Both the position numbers and the translations under genes were made by a program. A DNA stretch of 64,000 nucleotides from Eubacteriales bacterium (GTDB taxonomy: Bacteria > Bacillota > Clostridia > Oscillospirales > QAKW01): NCBI GenBank assembly GCA_045546995.1, contig JAZQDW010000067.1, forward strand, positions 1,864-65,863, given 5' to 3'. The notes under the pieces were generated by a model that was given only the letters and a program-made list of their open reading frames with translations, was not told the DNA's origin and did no database searches. Below, in pieces: positions 3,012-57,752 of this stretch (its first letter is position 1; the number at the start of each line of letters is the position of its first letter).

Positions 3012-3947
3012 TTATAATACGTTGATCAGTATGATGCCGCCAAATGCTACGATCATACCCAATATACTTCTCTTTGTGATCTTTTCACCAAAAAACACCA
3101 TACCGGTCGCGCTGTTGATGATCAGGGCGCCGCCCTTCACGATCGGATAGAGTATCTGAGAGGGCATCCCCATCACACCCGTCGCCAAGGTTTGCAAAAA
3201 GTTGGTAGCAAACAAAAAGCTGGCCATAATACCGATGTGGATCCAGGTCGGACGCAAAGAAGCGCCAATGTTTTTACAGTACTCACGTCTATACGGCGCC
3301 GGTCGTTTCAACAAAAGCACCACCAGTATCATCAATACCGCAAGGAAACAACAAACGAAGGAATAAAAATGAAATACCGACATCGGATATACCGTTTCCC
3401 CTGCGAAGGCGCCACCCTCTTGGTAAAACTTGGTATAAAGTTGCTGTGAAAAGGAGATCATTCCGTCACCAAGCAACGCCATAATCAACCAAAGGATGCC
3501 GCCAAAGGTCTTTTTGGGTCCGGTTTTATTAAACTTTGAAAGAATGGCGGATGCGATTACGATCAGCGCAAAGCCTGCCATCTTGGGAAGTTTGATCGGC
3601 TCGGCAAAAAAGAATGCGCACAACACCGCCGGAATGATCGATCCCAATGTGAGCGTCACGTCCACCGTGACCAAAGCGTTATGTTGCACGGCAAGCATCC
3701 AGCCAATCAAAAATGCCAAATTTGCCAGACCCGATAGCAGACAAACGGCAAGCATACCGCCGCTCACGGGTATAGCGCCACCGTCAAACAGCATCAGCAC
3801 AAAGCCAATGGCCATACATATAGCCATACGGATGGTGCTGAATAGATATGCATCCTCCGTATGCGTTGCCTGAATGCTGACTTTTTTTCCACTGTATCCC
3901 TTTGCGGCGTTGAAAAACAGAGCCAGCAGAACCACCAGGTATACCAC
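3012..3947 (-). CDS. DMT/EamA-like polytopic membrane transporter
   Basis: About 10 hydrophobic segments. The track ORF (to 4346) has an implausible non-membrane N-extension. GTG 3947 is preceded by GGAGGA at 7 nt. Stop lies 1 nt from the GRE ORF, consistent with an operon. Confidence 0.65.
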   Translation of the reverse strand: MVYLVVLLALFFNAAKGYSGKKVSIQATHTEDAYLFSTIRMAICMAIGFVLMLFDGGAIPVSGGMLAVCLLSGLANLAFLIGWMLAVQHNALVTVDVTLTLGSIIPAVLCAFFFAEPIKLPKMAGFALIVIASAILSKFNKTGPKKTFGGILWLIMALLGDGMISFSQQLYTKFYQEGGAFAGETVYPMSVFHFYSFVCCFLAVLMILVVLLLKRPAPYRREYCKNIGASLRPTWIHIGIMASFLFATNFLQTLATGVMGMPSQILYPIVKGGALIINSATGMVFFGEKITKRSILGMIVAFGGIILINVL

Positions 3948-8957: not shown

Positions 8958-10154
8958 TCAGTTTCCTTTTACCAGACGCTCGGTATCCAAAGCGATGGCC
9001 AGTTCCTCGTTGGTAGGAATAACGAAAGCGGCAACACGGCTGGCATCGGTGGTGATCTTCACGGCCTTGCCACGGCAATTGTTGGCCTCACTGTCCACCT
9101 CAACGCCCAAAAATGCAACCTGATTGAGGATATCGGCGCGCATAATGGGGTTGTTTTCGCCGACGCCGGCGGTAAATACTACGGCATCCAGACCACCCAT
9201 AACGGCAGCGTAGGAACCGATATATTTTACGATCTGATAATTGAACATATCCAGTGCCAACTGAGCGCGGTCATTGCCCTCATCGGCGGCCTTATCCAAA
9301 TCGCGGAAGTCGCTGGAGACGCCGCTGACACCCAGAACGCCGCACTTTTTATTGAGGAAATCGCCGATCTCATCCACGGAGATGTTAAATTTCTTCATAA
9401 TGAACGGCAGGATGGCCGGGTCGATATCACCGCAACGGGTGCCCATCAGCAGACCGGCAAGAGGCGTAAAGCCCATGGAGGTATCCACGCACTTACCGCC
9501 GTCAACGGCAGTAATGGAAGAGCCGTTACCCAGATGGCAGGTGACGATCTTCAGCTCTTTGGGATCTTTGCCCATCATTTCGGCGCATTTGGCGGCAACG
9601 TATTTATGAGAGGTGCCGTGAGCGCCGAAGCGGCGGATCCCGTGATCGGTATAATATTCATAAGGCAGCGCGTAAACACTGGCGACCTTGGGCATAGTTT
9701 GATGGAAGGAGGTGTCGAAAACGCAGATCTGCGGAATGCCCTCACCCATAACCTCAATACAGGCGCGGATGCCGGTAACAGCAGGCGGATTGTGAAGCGG
9801 TGCAAACTCGGTCAGCGTTTCCAGCGTTTTGATCTTTTCCTCGTCCATAATGCAGCTTTCGGGGAAGATCTCACCGCCGTTAACTACGCGGTGACCAACA
9901 GCAGAAATGTCGGAAACGTTTTCAATAACACCGTATTCGGCGTCGGTAAGATACTTCAGCACCAATTCGATGGCAACCTTATGGTTGGGCAAAGCGATCT
10001 CCATTTTGATCTCTTTATCGCCGGCCACGTGTTTGAAAGCGCCGTCAACGTTGATACGCTCGCACTGACCCTTGGCCAGAACAGCGTGATCCTCCATATT
10101 GATCAGCTGGTACTTCAAAGAAGAACTGCCGGCATTGATAACCAGAATTTTCAT
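8958..10154 (-). CDS. ackA: acetate kinase
   Basis: MKILVINAGSSSLKYQL N-terminus, full length of about 398 aa. Confidence 0.95.
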   Translation of the reverse strand: MKILVINAGSSSLKYQLINMEDHAVLAKGQCERINVDGAFKHVAGDKEIKMEIALPNHKVAIELVLKYLTDAEYGVIENVSDISAVGHRVVNGGEIFPESCIMDEEKIKTLETLTEFAPLHNPPAVTGIRACIEVMGEGIPQICVFDTSFHQTMPKVASVYALPYEYYTDHGIRRFGAHGTSHKYVAAKCAEMMGKDPKELKIVTCHLGNGSSITAVDGGKCVDTSMGFTPLAGLLMGTRCGDIDPAILPFIMKKFNISVDEIGDFLNKKCGVLGVSGVSSDFRDLDKAADEGNDRAQLALDMFNYQIVKYIGSYAAVMGGLDAVVFTAGVGENNPIMRADILNQVAFLGVEVDSEANNCRGKAVKITTDASRVAAFVIPTNEELAIALDTERLVKGN

Positions 10155-45767: not shown

Positions 45768-46041
45768 CTGATTCCTCCTGTCTTGTTCATTGATCACGTC
45801 GATTTATTCTTATAAGTTAATTATAAAAAAATTATAACATATTGCGCAAAAGTTTTGCAATAAAAAGTAGGCAAAGCGCACTTAAAAAAAGAAAGCCAAC
45901 AGCCGTCGTATCTCATCAAGGTGCAAGAGGGTTTATGCACGGCTATGCCGTGATGATATGCGGGGCCTGCGGCTTGGATAAAAAAAGAACAGCTAAACGG
46001 TGCGTAAAGCATGATAAGAAAAGCGATTAGGTGCGTAAATC

Positions 46042-46518
46042 CTATCTTTGATTGAATGTAGATAACTCCTCACACTTGGGATATCTTTTCAGATAGCCAT
46101 CTATGATAGCCTTATCCCTACTAATAATGAGAGTCCACGAACTGTCACAAGGGACAATTTCTACAGAGGAAAGCGGATGTTGGAGAGATACTGGATTTTG
46201 ATAATACCCATTATAATCTTCGGCAGACGGCAATGGATATTTTAAGACTTCTTCAACTGTGATATTTTTAGGAAAACCGCAAAAACATCCCCAAATCCAT
46301 TGAAAATCCTCTTGTTCAATTATAGCAGATAATTCATCACCCGAAAACCAACAATACTCTTGATCAAGCAGTTTTTTGATATCCTTATTCCGTGGATAAC
46401 ATACACCATCCGTAATAAGCCAATTATATTGCAGTTGTGCATTGTTAATTGCCTGAAAAACCTTGCTCATATAAGTGTAGTATTTATGATTTCTCCTATC
46501 AACAATGCCATATGTCAT
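46042..46518 (-). CDS. hypothetical protein (158 aa), AT-rich islet
   Basis: ATG overlaps the stop of the upstream four-helix-bundle gene (ATGA). No motif assigned with confidence (possibly DUF2691-like, from memory). Confidence 0.55.
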   Translation of the reverse strand: MTYGIVDRRNHKYYTYMSKVFQAINNAQLQYNWLITDGVCYPRNKDIKKLLDQEYCWFSGDELSAIIEQEDFQWIWGCFCGFPKNITVEEVLKYPLPSAEDYNGYYQNPVSLQHPLSSVEIVPCDSSWTLIISRDKAIIDGYLKRYPKCEELSTFNQR

Positions 46519-46868
46519 CTTACATTCTCCTTTGCAGTTCGGCAGGATGCGATCAGCATTGCTCTTAACGAAGTACACTTTGCAGAAAGTGTTTTATAAG
46601 TTTGTTCGTCAATGTATTTTGTTCTGTACAAAAGTTCAAGCCAGTAACCTGTTTCGCTTGCTTCTTTTAAGGCGATTTCAAGCTTGGAAATAAAATCCTT
46701 CTTGCCTTGTGCATACTGTGTTTCGTGGATGTTGGCACCAATGCTTGTACCACTTCTGCCGATTTGATTGGAAACGATAGATTCCTTGACAGATTTTAAT
46801 TTTTTTACCAATTCAATTATATCAACTGAGAATTCCATAGAAAGTTCCCTAAGTTTTGATTCTGACAT
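46515..46868 (-). CDS. four-helix-bundle protein (23S rRNA intervening-sequence protein / Avd-like family)
   Basis: MSESKLRELSMEFSVDIIELVKKL...IGRSGTSIGANIHETQ...ALKEASETGYWLELL is typical of this family. Confidence 0.7.
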   Translation of the reverse strand: MSESKLRELSMEFSVDIIELVKKLKSVKESIVSNQIGRSGTSIGANIHETQYAQGKKDFISKLEIALKEASETGYWLELLYRTKYIDEQTYKTLSAKCTSLRAMLIASCRTAKENVR

Positions 46869-46923
46869 AATATACACCTCGCTTTTCAATATTATATCGC
46901 ATAATTGGATTGTTTGTAAATAA

Positions 46924-47052
46924 GTGATAAGTGATGCAGCTACGCTGTGATAGGTGATGCGATGCGTTCCATTCACGCGCCGCAGGCGTGCATCACGGGC
47001 GACGCCTGCATCACGCACGCAGTGCGCATCACGTTCCGAAGGAACGCATCAC
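46924..47052. repeat. mirror array of heptamer GTGATGC / GCATCAC interleaved with unique short GC hairpins
   Basis: Left half: GTGAT at 46924, 46931, 46947, 46954. Right half: GCATCAC at 46990, 47008, 47026, 47046 (18-20 bp period). Spacers are CGCCgcaGGCG, GGCGaCGCC, GCACgcaGTGC, GTTCCgaaGGAAC. Confidence 0.7.
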
Positions 47053-47053
47053 G

Positions 47054-47096
47054 CAAAGAAACCTGATTTGTCTGGTAGACAAATCAGGTTTCTTTG
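47054..47096. other. 20-bp perfect-stem hairpin abutting the tRNA-Val(GAC) 3' end
   Basis: CAAAGAAACCTGATTTGTCT ggt AGACAAATCAGGTTTCTTTG. Confidence 0.7.
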
Positions 47097-47097
47097 T

Positions 47098-47173
47098 TGG
47101 TGGGAGTAACAGGACTCGAACCTGTGACCCCTTGCACGTCAAGCAAGTGCTCTACCAGCTGAGCTATACTTCC
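47098..47173 (-). tRNA. tRNA-Val (anticodon GAC), with encoded CCA
   Basis: Cloverleaf read by eye. Anticodon loop TTGACGT. GTTCGAGTC T-loop. One A3:C70 mismatch in the acceptor stem. Confidence 0.8.
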
Positions 47174-47188
47174 ATTTTGTACTATGTT

Positions 47189-47216
47189 ATTATATCACAC
47201 TTTTTTGAAAATGCAA
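47189..47216 (-). promoter_or_regulatory. candidate separate promoter for tRNA-Val(GAC)
   Basis: On the minus strand: TTGCAT, 16-nt spacer, TATAAT, with TGa extended -10. Confidence 0.45.
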
Positions 47217-47295
47217 TACCTTTTTTAAAAAAGTGATCGAAAGTCGCTGTATCGCCTGCGGCGAGACAGCTCTGCGCGAACTGCAGACTGCGACC

Positions 47296-47333
47296 AAAAG
47301 AAAAAGCATCCCGATAGGGATGCTTTTTCTTTT
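47296..47333 (-). terminator. long hairpin terminator after the three-tRNA unit
   Basis: AAAAGAAAAAGCATCCC gata GGGATGCTTTTTCTTTT, a 17-bp stem. Confidence 0.6.
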
Positions 47334-51306: not shown

Positions 51307-51340
51307 ATCTTATTCTCCTTATGTAGTAATAATTTTCTGC

Positions 51341-51400
51341 GCAAGGGACAAGGGAGGGACAAGAGGACAGAGGGACAAGGGGACGGTTCTCTTGTCCCCC
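51341..51400 (+). repeat. REP-like element (version 1) with an iterated GGGACAAG 5' arm
   Basis: gcaagggacaagggagggacaagaggacagagggacaagGGGACGGTTCTcttgtccccc. Confidence 0.8.
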
Positions 51401-51513
51401 TGGCCAAAATTACTTTACACGGTTAAGTTTATACAATATCCTTTTCCCCAAGTTCCTATCAAAAGTTTGGTATCATGATCATAAAACTCGGCAAAACAGC
51501 CGTGATCTATCTC

Positions 51514-51545
51514 GGGGAGACAAGGGGACGGTTCTCTTGTCTCCT
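51514..51545 (+). repeat. REP-like element (version 1)
   Basis: ggggagacaagGGGACGGTTCTcttgtctcc followed by T7. Lies 5 nt from the RAYT-like gene 2 stop. Confidence 0.85.
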
Positions 51546-51549
51546 TTTT

Positions 51550-52293
51550 TTAAATGTTTGATTCTACAATTTTCTTAGAAATACCAGTTAATCGAGCAAT
51601 TTGCCTTATCGATAAACCTTTGTTATGCAATTTGCTAATATAGAAATTACGTTTTTCTTTATCAAGTTTTTGAAAATCTGCTGCTGTCTTACATTTTGTG
51701 CTTTTCAATATAATCGTTTTTGCTTCAGCATCTGTCAAGCGATAATGTTCATCCATTTCTAAACAATTATCCGCATTTTCTTCTCTGTGATACTCAATAA
51801 ATTGATCCTTCGTAATCATCGAAAGAGCAAAACTTGTATCAACAAAAACCGGAGTTCCTAAATATTCTTTTATGCTACTGTTGGCGTATTCCTCTGCCTT
51901 TATGCATATCCCTGCCTTCACAGGATTCTGATGAATATACCGCAACACCGTGAGAAAATAGCTATCATCCTCAACAGGTTCACTCTTGAATCGATCCTGA
52001 AACAAATGTCCACAGCGGTGATATTTCCAGTTATACCAATAAACATAACTCCCGGCAATTCGTTTAAATATGGCGCTTAATTCTTCTGCGCCTTCTCGCA
52101 ACAGAATATGTATATGATTCCCCATCAAGCAATACGCATATACTGTATATCCGCATAATTCCTTATATAGGGCAAGTGTTTCAACAAATCTTTGACAATC
52201 TTCTCCATCCTCAAATATCTGTTGACGATTGATTCCTCTCAATATTATGTGGTATATTCCACTATCGCTCTTTTTTCGTGCTTGACGTGGCAT
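51550..52293 (-). CDS. RAYT-type (IS200-like Y1/HUH) transposase-like protein with C-terminal HTH, diverged paralog
   Basis: NHIHILL, LRYIHQNP, GHLFQDRFKS, GLSIRQIARLTGIS. N-terminal domain about 64% identical to the 40413..41159 product by hand alignment, C-terminal part lower. Confidence 0.8.
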   Translation of the reverse strand: MPRQARKKSDSGIYHIILRGINRQQIFEDGEDCQRFVETLALYKELCGYTVYAYCLMGNHIHILLREGAEELSAIFKRIAGSYVYWYNWKYHRCGHLFQDRFKSEPVEDDSYFLTVLRYIHQNPVKAGICIKAEEYANSSIKEYLGTPVFVDTSFALSMITKDQFIEYHREENADNCLEMDEHYRLTDAEAKTIILKSTKCKTAADFQKLDKEKRNFYISKLHNKGLSIRQIARLTGISKKIVESNI

Positions 52294-52310
52294 AACTATC
52301 ACCCAATTTG

Positions 52311-52339
52311 ATAATACATCATCATCTATTTTTTGTCAA
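52311..52339 (-). promoter_or_regulatory. candidate promoter of the RAYT-like gene 2
   Basis: On the minus strand: TTGACA, 17-nt spacer, TATTAT. The -35 directly follows a REP hairpin plus T5. Confidence 0.55.
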
Positions 52340-52345
52340 GAAAAA

Positions 52346-52435
52346 GGGGACAAGAGAACCGTCCCCTTGTCTCCCAGAGAACCGTCCCCTTGTCTCCCGA
52401 GAAAAAGGGGACAAGAGAACCGTCCCCTTGTCTCC
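52346..52435 (-). repeat. three REP-like elements (version 1) in inverted orientation
   Basis: Complement cores AGAACCGTCCCC at 52355, 52378 and 52416. On the minus strand two of them read as hairpin plus T5. Confidence 0.85.
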
Positions 52436-52662
52436 TAAATATAATAGTCCCCTTGCGTTGTTTTGACAATCAATCGGGAATCTGTTGTGAATTTAGCAAC
52501 GCTCGGTTGCACCATATCGGAGAAACGCGAAACGTGCTCTCCCGTTTTTTTGTCATATAAATTCGCGCTGCCGCCGCAACAACAAAAATATTTCTCATTA
52601 TGCGCGATGTGATATGATTTCTTGAAAGTAAATAGAATCTCTTTTTTATCAATCACTTTCAT
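52435..52662 (-). CDS. 75-aa ORF, probably a truncated gene remnant
   Basis: AAGGAGG upstream (a GTG at 52656 is better spaced). The ORF ends exactly at the REP cluster boundary. No motif recognised. Confidence 0.35.
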   Translation of the reverse strand: MKVIDKKEILFTFKKSYHIAHNEKYFCCCGGSANLYDKKTGEHVSRFSDMVQPSVAKFTTDSRLIVKTTQGDYYI

Positions 52663-57419: not shown

Positions 57420-57533
57420 ATATAAAAATGACACTTTACGCAAAAGCGAAAGTGTCATAGTGGGTTACGTATTTTAAAGCATATATAAAAGTTACTTGCC
57501 GAAAACAAGAAATTTATTTTTCGGCAGGTTTAA

Positions 57534-57706
57534 GTGATATTGCAAACTACCGTTTGCAGTGATATTTTGCCTTGCGGCAAAGTGAGATAAAAGCCTGCGG
57601 CTTTTGTGATATTATATTCGCTCCACAACTCGGCGAAGCCGAATATCACACGGCATAACCGTATATCACTGCGAAGCAATATCACTCGCCTTTAGGCGAA
57701 TATAAC
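57534..57706. repeat. mirror array of heptamer GTGATAT / ATATCAC interleaved with unique short hairpins
   Basis: GTGATAT at 57534, 57559 and 57606; GTGAGAT at 57582. ATATCAC at 57643, 57663 and 57679; ATATAAC at 57700. Each unit carries a different 9-19 nt palindrome. Confidence 0.7.
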
Positions 57707-57752
57707 TGCGGCACCTTCCTTACGGAGGGTGCCGCCAGTGTGTCCTTTTTAT

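Follow-up and report, generated by a model that had tools for sequence, protein, structure and literature searches.

The stretch of DNA analysed here, hereafter the window, comprises 64,000 nucleotides of contig JAZQDW010000067.1 from an Eubacteriales bacterium, and carries on its minus strand an array of conserved heptamers and small hairpins between a tRNA gene and a gene for a four-helix-bundle (4HB) protein. The array, termed array 1 (46924-47052), runs from the terminator of tRNA-Val(gac) to the -35 element of the 4HB gene, and consists of two inverted arms with six exact GTGATGC/GCATCAC heptamers and two variants, small GC hairpins being interspersed. The tRNA-Val(gac) gene (47098..47173, minus strand; ARAGORN, and 67 bits with the Rfam tRNA model) lies directly upstream of what we describe below as a cassette, whose first part is a bidirectional terminator-like hairpin with perfect 20-bp arms and an A- or T-rich run on either side (47054..47096). 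Beyond the array, a sigma-70-type promoter, TTTACA-N18-TATAAT (46891..46920, minus strand), matches the consensus at 11 of 12 positions, and its -35 element starts 2 nt past the last heptamer. The 4HB gene itself (46515..46868, minus strand) encodes 117 residues and belongs to the Avd-like/23S rRNA intervening-sequence protein family (PF05635, 9e-28; TIGR02436, 5e-31); the closest solved relative of its product is PDB 2RLD (7e-29), deposited with five chains.

Layout of array 1

Read on the minus strand from 47052, the tRNA-proximal arm A (46976..47052) is made of four GTGATGC heptamers with a GC mini-hairpin after each, i.e., GTGATGC-GTTCCttcGGAAC, GTGATGC-GCACtgcGTGC, GTGATGC-AGGCgtcGCCC and GTGATGC-ACGCCtgcGGCGcGT, with periods of 20, 18 and 18 nt. 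Arm A is followed on the same strand by the half-motif GTGAATG (46970-46976) and by the centre of the array, GGAACGCATC (46961..46970), a perfect 10-nt complement of GATGCGTTCC (47041-47050), which is formed by the first heptamer and the 5' arm of the first hairpin. The promoter-proximal arm B (46924..46960, minus strand) has the reverse polarity and reads GCATCAC-CTATCAC, AGCgtaGCT, GCATCAC-TTATCAC. In the clade of the window most hairpins of arm B are lost, and the heptamers are kept and abut each other, whereas other clades retain three hairpins in this arm.

The heptamer GCATCAC occurs 23 times on the two strands of the window, compared with 9.35 +/- 3.07 in dinucleotide shuffles, and 6 of the 23 copies fall inside 122 bp at array 1. 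The top local count of any heptamer in the window, 6 copies per ~130 bp, is reached by GCATCAC and by one other heptamer, which stems from hairpins near 52345 that resemble repetitive extragenic palindromes (REP). A detector that asks for at least three identical heptamers with hairpin-forming spacers between them returns array 1 and a second array at ~57530-57710, and nothing else in the window. No array is returned from 1.26 Mb of other Clostridia loci, namely 80 TyrS-anchored genome loci (75-82% identical) that served as a negative control. The idea of chance low complexity, or of a decaying and functionless tandem repeat, draws only on the small size of the array and on Tandem Repeats Finder, which sees a 16-nt repeat there and nothing more. 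It is excluded by the clustering and enrichment of the heptamer and by an architecture kept in more than 70 loci at 69-93% protein identity, and we give it practically no weight.

The first-pass annotation of this DNA had described a real, non-random and mirror-symmetric element between the tRNA and an Avd-like gene, and every part of that description is found at its place. The heptamer is indeed constant and the hairpin sequence free, as hairpins differ both within and between arrays; the further remark that every hairpin is different holds inside array 1 and fails among the homologous arrays of close relatives, where hairpins recur with changes mostly in the loops. The distinctions drawn from REP elements and from CRISPR are also confirmed, since hairpin sequences are not shared among copies and since 7-nt repeats in both orientations are separated by palindromic spacers of 9-17 nt. 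The single similar units noted nearby (47232-47249 and 45940-45970) are not supported: the array profile introduced below picks up neither, and the window contains 214 copies of GTGAT/ATCAC alone. The two mechanisms then proposed, a protein-binding array and a junction-forming structure in RNA or DNA, remain live.

Two coding interpretations were tried and rejected. Mini-genes in which GTGATG or ATGATG would provide tandem starts, and the TGA of the next heptamer the stop, are compatible with the 20-nt unit only, the 18-nt units being out of frame, and have no ribosome-binding site (RBS). Peptide-coding frames with 'ASR' or 'HH' repeats extend into the tRNA and lack the context of a start or an RBS. 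As for a resemblance to K-turns or to box C (RUGAUGA), neither a CUGA partner nor the geometry of a 3-nt bulge is apparent, no dedicated search having been made.

Gut-1 and the 4HB cassette

The second array of the window, array 2 (57532..57708, both strands), stands alone, has the same design in a GTGATAT/ATATCAC dialect and is an inverted pair of motifs of the Rfam family Gut-1 (RF01706). Its right arm scores 59.1 bits (57638-57708, minus strand) and, at a gathering score of 50, is a member of that family; the left arm scores 40.7 bits (57532-57617, plus strand). The window has a single 4HB gene, and array 2 is without one. Array 1 obtains 24.7 bits with the Gut-1 covariance model (47003-47074, minus strand; E=0.007 on a 261-nt stretch), which is below the 50-bit threshold, and the 4HB-linked half-arrays of other loci obtain 29-44 bits, with right arms matching on the opposite strand. 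A profile hidden Markov model (HMM), built from 45 related arrays of which none is from the clade of the window, matches array 1 at 47053-46926 with E=1.3e-19 and array 2 with E=1.7e-6, and finds no match in the 1.26 Mb of control loci. The same profile gives an opposite-strand match in nearly every array, which quantifies the mirror symmetry. Fecal scaffold L284, almost the same in sequence as the Gut-1 seed BAAZ01025322, extends through tRNA-Arg, a terminator, Gut-1 (59.1 bits), -35 and -10 elements and a 4HB gene (59% identity to the window 4HB); the seed contig stops short of the 4HB gene. Because the HMM matches both arrays and L284 supplies this context, the Gut-1 family makes up the front of 4HB cassettes, and the assignment of array 1 as a new, diverged heptamer dialect of that family is well supported.

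The Gut-1 consensus has three short hairpins, each followed by GUGAAAU, right behind a terminator. Array 1 shows this architecture with another heptamer, GUGAUGC in place of GUGA(A/U)AU, the difference being confined to heptamer positions 5-7, and is connected to Gut-1 by homology through intermediates as well as by a common genomic context. Both have consecutive GC hairpins of free sequence, conserved (G/A)UGAnnn heptamers and a start directly behind a terminator, and both come from Clostridia of the human or animal gut. The array is thus not the new small repeat class that the first-pass annotation had suggested, a match to a described family being the very outcome it had named as speaking against that suggestion.

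An exact look-up of the 4HB and TyrS proteins of the window returned no identical record. About 8000 homologues of the 4HB protein are found at E<=1e-10, mostly on very short contigs; the best matches listed are 88-94% identical, and most of them are encoded on contigs of ~1 kb or less, which is the signature of a multi-copy gene. A module of ~590 bp, comprising the terminator hairpin, the array, the promoter and the 4HB gene, is present on three long contigs in unrelated neighbourhoods. In BLASTN, the homology of close-clade cassettes to the window extends from ~47100, the base past the tRNA, to the 4HB stop at 46515, and the passenger gene of the window is not common to them.

We compared 80 metagenome loci whose 4HB genes are 69-91% identical, and the array architecture lies upstream of the 4HB gene in almost all of them. 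Arm A has four (G/A)TGATGY heptamers and short hairpins. In the centre, a second copy of the first hairpin's 3' arm is followed by CATC, and arm B has three hairpins of 6-7 bp with RCATCA(C/T) between them, the last heptamer being located at the -35 element. In the loci with enough upstream DNA, the 4HB ATG lies 230-290 nt past the end of a tRNA, which can have nearly any identity, or of a tmRNA, on the same strand. The gene after the 4HB gene usually overlaps its stop and is extremely variable: passengers include GNAT acetyltransferases, nucleotidyltransferases (AadA-like ones among them), an S-adenosylmethionine methyltransferase, a histidine phosphatase, an EEP nuclease/phosphatase, DUF218, a P-loop kinase and many small unknown proteins. 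Arrays are also found solo, in tandem or behind the passenger gene, and no further 4HB genes follow the extra arrays. In sum, a cassette with the order terminator hairpin, array, promoter, 4HB gene, translationally coupled variable passenger and sometimes a short conserved 3' segment is well supported, as is its nature as a multi-copy accessory unit of gut Clostridia directly behind a tRNA or tmRNA terminator.

In the window, the passenger gene (46042..46518, minus strand) has a weak match to DUF2691, its ATG overlaps the 4HB stop (ATGA), and an ABC transporter is the neighbour beyond it. Right behind it lies a conserved 3' segment with two TTTACGCACC repeats (45984..46040, minus strand). This segment of ~55 nt recurs in three other loci (L202 10591-10648, L220 1083-1140 and L238 655-705) with a terminator next to it, is common to cassettes of different 4HB clades, and may be the 3' boundary of the cassette or a second cis site.

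More distant 4HB genes have other surroundings. In locus L203 a second 4HB gene (9060-9520; 49% identity), without a heptamer array, is enclosed by 30-nt inverted repeats (GTTGACAGTTGACAGTGGAAAGTGGACAGTT and its complement) that recall the stems of rRNA intervening sequences. In Monoglobus pectinilyticus (NZ_OY725736, 80876-81193) an unannotated homologue of 48% identity lies between hsdS and hsdR, inside a type I restriction-modification operon, with neither array nor tRNA. Plasmid and phage collections yield only 4HB homologues below 60% identity, and a pattern scan of viral contigs for three copies of GCATCAC finds only coding tandem repeats with periods of 18 or 21, none with hairpin spacers.

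Heptamers, hairpins and their possible reader

The heptamer dialect is uniform within an array of 8-10 heptamers, and the two arms agree in all 72 informative loci (39 G/C, 33 A/T, none mixed); canonical Gut-1 arrays add the GTGATAT and GTGAAAT dialects. At the seventh heptamer position there is no pairwise covariation between the arms (UA 24, UG 11, CA 6), which fits a shared reader better than base pairing from arm to arm. Distinct spacers form hairpins of at least four Watson-Crick pairs in 57% of cases in arm A and 68% in arm B, as against 4% and 16% in shuffles, and the stem sequences vary between loci with compensatory changes. The 985 stem pairs comprise 928 Watson-Crick, 7 G.T, 1 A.C and 49 other pairs, many of the last appearing, from example spacers, to be tandem G.A pairs in arm B. 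On one strand, the loops are TTC, TGC or TAC in arm A and GAA, AAA, GCA or GTA in arm B, that is, mainly TNC and GNA triloops, and many units are of the minimal GCGAAGC/GCTTCGC type, a mini-hairpin that is exceptionally stable as DNA and weak as RNA. In 26 of 44 arrays, as against 3 of 880 shuffles, the centre holds a long-range complement of 9-13 nt to the first heptamer and the adjoining arm of the first hairpin; its sequence comes in three versions. Because a MAFFT alignment does not bring the variable stems into structural register, RNAalifold run on it recovered the hairpins only in part, and unit-wise parsing was used instead.

The last heptamer and the promoter are closely apposed: as scored, the -35 element starts between -1 and +2 nt from that heptamer in 38 of 65 distinct arrays, and several of the other 27, those of the window clade included, were missed by a regular expression that could not match degenerate last heptamers. 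In ~12-14 of the 65 (~20%) there is no promoter between array and RBS, the RBS then being located 17-33 nt past the last heptamer. The N-terminus of the 4HB protein follows the dialect, with M(S/A)ESKLR accompanying GTGATG and MKENKL(A/V) accompanying ATGATG, and the mutual information between dialect and protein is ~0.9 bit at residues 2, 4 and 7 and at most 0.37 elsewhere. Synonymous sites are saturated within each N-terminal type, and in the recombinant locus L241 the type of the 4HB protein follows the promoter-proximal heptamer only.

From these sequence patterns we tentatively favour, as possible rather than probable, a multi-site landing pad, in which an oligomer encoded by the cassette, probably the 4HB protein, would read the heptamers and control the adjacent promoter. 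The heptamers would be the sequence-specific contacts of this oligomeric protein, for which 4HB, whose closest solved relative 2RLD was deposited with five chains, is the only conserved candidate. With the last heptamer touching the -35 element, occupancy would set, and would probably repress, cassette transcription, and would also insulate the cassette from the strong tRNA unit that precedes it. The hairpins would act as spacers defined by structure only, which could fold out in an unwound or single-stranded region and bring the heptamers together. Hairpins of DNA are favoured over a single RNA because the stems are nearly pure Watson-Crick, the triloops are GNA and TNC and the array has reverse-complement symmetry, and reading at the DNA level is favoured because the array sits between an intrinsic terminator and a promoter in most loci. 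Such a landing pad would account for the unity of the dialect, the -35 contact, heptamers that outlast hairpins and the covariation with the 4HB N-terminus, and, if read at the DNA level, also for stem composition, loops and strand symmetry. It has a parallel in the target hairpin of diversity-generating retroelements, which acts at the level of DNA (PMC3240598).

Several points weigh against the landing pad. To our knowledge, no member of the 4HB family has been demonstrated to bind DNA in a sequence-specific manner, and the binding of nucleic acids by bAvd is non-specific. Two old lineages, or mere physical linkage (compare L241), may explain why dialect and N-terminus are correlated, and solo and tandem arrays occur without a 4HB gene. 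A plain operator in double-stranded DNA has no need of hairpins, and at 3-7 bp the stems are too short for extrusion from relaxed duplex DNA. In the promoter-less loci the array must be transcribed. Finally, Weinberg et al. 2010 grade Gut-1 as certainly RNA ('RNA? Y') on covariation, with a NUM_COV of 18 (PMC2864571).

The last two points belong to the current Rfam view of Gut-1 as a small RNA (sRNA), for which we see a real though minor chance. The array would be part of a transcript, be it a 5' leader or the product of read-through at the tRNA terminator, and would fold into a closing stem of 10-13 bp around three hairpins followed by three more, to serve as a processing or stability element of the 4HB mRNA or as a scaffold for a 4HB oligomer, in the way that the Avd-reverse transcriptase complex binds the RNA of diversity-generating retroelements (DGRs). 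In addition to the published grading and the ~20% of loci with the array inside the transcript, this structured RNA is supported by compensatory changes in 9 of 14 RNAalifold pairs, by the conserved long-range complement, by a fold z-score of -8.1, by the 4HB genes that elsewhere reside inside rRNA intervening sequences and by the 4HB gene of L203 between its 30-nt inverted repeats. Against it, the array mostly follows an intrinsic terminator and precedes a promoter, G.U pairs are nearly absent (7 of 985 stem pairs), and many of the hairpins are GC stems of 2-3 bp with UUC loops that are weak as RNA. Moreover, the motif is a mirror image on both strands, so that one arm is always in the 'wrong' sense in a single transcript, and no antisense promoter is found. 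The scarcity of G.U pairs and the position between terminator and promoter thus argue against, and the promoter-less loci for, a transcribed sRNA.

The arrangement of cassettes along genomes bears on a further reading. At the orthologous loci of two relatives, anchored by Dus proteins 84% and 76% identical, the Met-Glu-Val(tac) tRNA operon and its terminator are kept, and tRNA-Val(gac), the array and the 4HB gene are missing; the comparison of orthologous regions proposed in the first-pass annotation could thus be made, with relatives that lack the cassette. Likewise, array 2 is absent downstream of the chromate-transporter genes in relatives. The presence/absence in relatives makes the cassette accessory, behaving like an insertion at tRNA 3' flanks, and since the relatives lack both, the extra tRNA-Val(gac) may have arrived together with the cassette. 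In the window, tRNA-Val(gac) has a promoter-like site of its own, TTGCAT-N17-TATAAT, and is separated by a terminator from the Met-Glu-Val(tac) operon (47174-47332).

Other tRNA flanks show further rearrangements. In the closest relative with data (L287 1-210; Dus 84%), a fragment of the phage-integrase family adjoins the 3' flank of tRNA-Val(tac) at the place of the cassette; the tRNA-Val 3' flank is a hotspot for different insertions. Two loci (L201 6078-6221 and L203 9598-9777) carry an insert of 120-165 nt between the complete tRNA and the cassette; it ends in a second copy of the last ~21 nt of the tRNA, holds the T-arm once more in antisense (CAGGACTCGAACC) and a hairpin with a CCGGGGGC loop, and resembles a scar left by integration into the 3' end of the tRNA. 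In L253 and L264 (2638-2713 and ~3440-3515), tRNA-Gly(gcc) is found right before the array and again right after the 4HB gene.

These arrangements would fit a cis site for mobility or recombination, comparable to an integron attC, a transposon end or a REP/BIME (bacterial interspersed mosaic element), which we rate as rather unlikely, on a par with the RNA. Single-stranded arms and hairpins would fold into a site that is defined by structure, variable in sequence and equipped with inverse core heptamers, and cassettes would be inserted or exchanged behind tRNA genes by a recombinase or HUH enzyme from another locus, perhaps with the help of 4HB. In its favour are the many different tRNAs that precede the multi-copy cassette inside one close clade, the presence/absence at orthologous loci, the duplicated tRNA 3' end of L201 and L203, the tRNA-Gly on both sides in L253 and L264, the integrase fragment in L287, and arrays that stand solo, in tandem or behind the passenger. 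Passengers that resemble integron cargo, Watson-Crick stems with GNA triloops, and the precedents of DNA hairpin targeting by DGRs and group IIC introns point the same way. However, no recombinase is linked to the cassette, neither a target-site duplication nor a sharp array-to-array junction has been demonstrated, a circular form is not seen, and extra arrays are not trailed by further 4HB genes. Nor does recombination require the conserved -35 contact, although transposon ends often overlap promoters, and the REP hairpins that accompany the nearby Y1 transposase are of a separate, unrelated kind.

Comparison with known systems

Like REP/BIME elements with their RAYT transposases, the arrays are small, inverted palindromic units, intergenic behind terminators and multi-copy, with a short conserved motif beside a hairpin. 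In REP, however, the hairpin sequence is conserved, whereas in the array only the heptamer is, and array 1 does not combine a shared palindrome with a cognate RAYT. A classic RAYT/REP arrangement is present elsewhere in the window (51330-52440), where a REP-like hairpin of 26-40 nt, GGGGACAAGAGAACCGTCCCCTTGTCTCC, stands in inverted copies on both sides of a gene for an IS200-like Y1 transposase with a C-terminal helix-turn-helix (51550-52302, minus strand; PF01797, 5e-14). These hairpins are unrelated in sequence to the heptamer arrays, and the Y1/REP unit is absent at the syntenic loci L286, L288 and L289. Array 1 does not have the ~23-50 nt direct repeats and non-palindromic spacers of CRISPR either.

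Integron attC sites share with the array a conserved structure of free sequence, inverse 7-bp cores on two halves and an association with variable, short genes that have no promoter and belong to comparable functional classes. The array differs in having several hairpins rather than one bulged stem and none of the GTTRRRY/RYYYAAC cores, and in being located upstream of a promoter-bearing 4HB gene, not after each cassette; with the cores absent and no integrase in the cassettes examined, array 1 is not an attC.

The target sites of DGRs depend on a hairpin or cruciform in the DNA, which has a GC stem whose sequence is free and a GRNA loop that is strand-specific and possibly contacts Avd (PMC3240598). 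They resemble the array in the Avd-family protein and in GC-rich DNA hairpins with free stems and strand-specific, purine-rich G(R)NA loops (PMC3240598). DGR hairpins have 7-10 bp and tetraloops, whereas those of the array have 3-7 bp and triloops, with many per site and heptamers interleaved. No reverse transcriptase gene adjoins the cassette of the window, whose neighbours are the DUF2691-like gene and the ABC transporter, and across loci the gene that partners 4HB varies and is never a reverse transcriptase, so that the array does not belong to a DGR, template and variable repeats not having been specifically searched.

The heptamers also recall omega operators, plasmid iterons and parC-type centromeres, where sites of 7 bp lie in either orientation just ahead of a promoter or overlap it, the omega site with the same ATCAC core. 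The ribbon-helix-helix (RHH) omega protein of pSM19035 binds arrays of WATCACW heptads, and an operator in plain double-stranded DNA for a comparable host or trans-acting repressor, the spacer palindromes being incidental, is conceivable and very unlikely. It would suit the common core, the TATCACA and TATCACT of arm B, which fit WATCACW, the two abutting di-heptads of that arm, a heptamer spacing of about two helical turns and the last site at the -35 element. The fit is partial: most heptamers (GCATCAC, ACATCAT) are spaced and violate the W flanks of the consensus, and the spacer palindromes are far above chance and kept by compensatory change. Array heptads are mostly separated by palindromes of 9-17 bp, no RHH, Rep or ParR gene is seen in the cassette, and the arrays are chromosomal and linked to tRNA genes.

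The closest known system is Gut-1 itself. The 2010 paper describes it from human-gut metagenomes, giving no organism, context or function (PMC2864571), and the searchable literature yields no later functional work on Gut-1 or on the PF05635 4HB family. Gut-1 as published corresponds to one arm, with no description of the mirror arm, the tRNA linkage, the -35 contact or the 4HB cassette in the paper or the portions of its supplement covered here (PMC2864571). Judged by the searchable literature, the two-armed architecture, the linkage to tRNA and tmRNA, the contact with the 4HB promoter, the variable-cargo cassette and the doubt about Gut-1 as an RNA appear to be new. Gut-1 thereby gains a concrete context, as inverted pairs behind tRNA and tmRNA terminators that touch the promoter of an abundant 4HB gene with a variable passenger; whether it is an RNA at all becomes a question, and its function and that of the 4HB family outside DGRs become directly testable.

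On the widest view, which is speculative and would in our judgement be a fairly long shot, Gut-1-type double arrays and the Avd-like 4HB protein would constitute an unrecognised cassette system with tRNA and tmRNA genes as its targets. Its attachment and control site would be the array, as a piece of single-stranded DNA defined by structure, with clade-specific dialects read by a 4HB oligomer, and diverse passengers would be captured and expressed behind it. Such a system, possibly a new cassette platform in gut Clostridia, would be functionally analogous to integrons and mechanistically unrelated to them.

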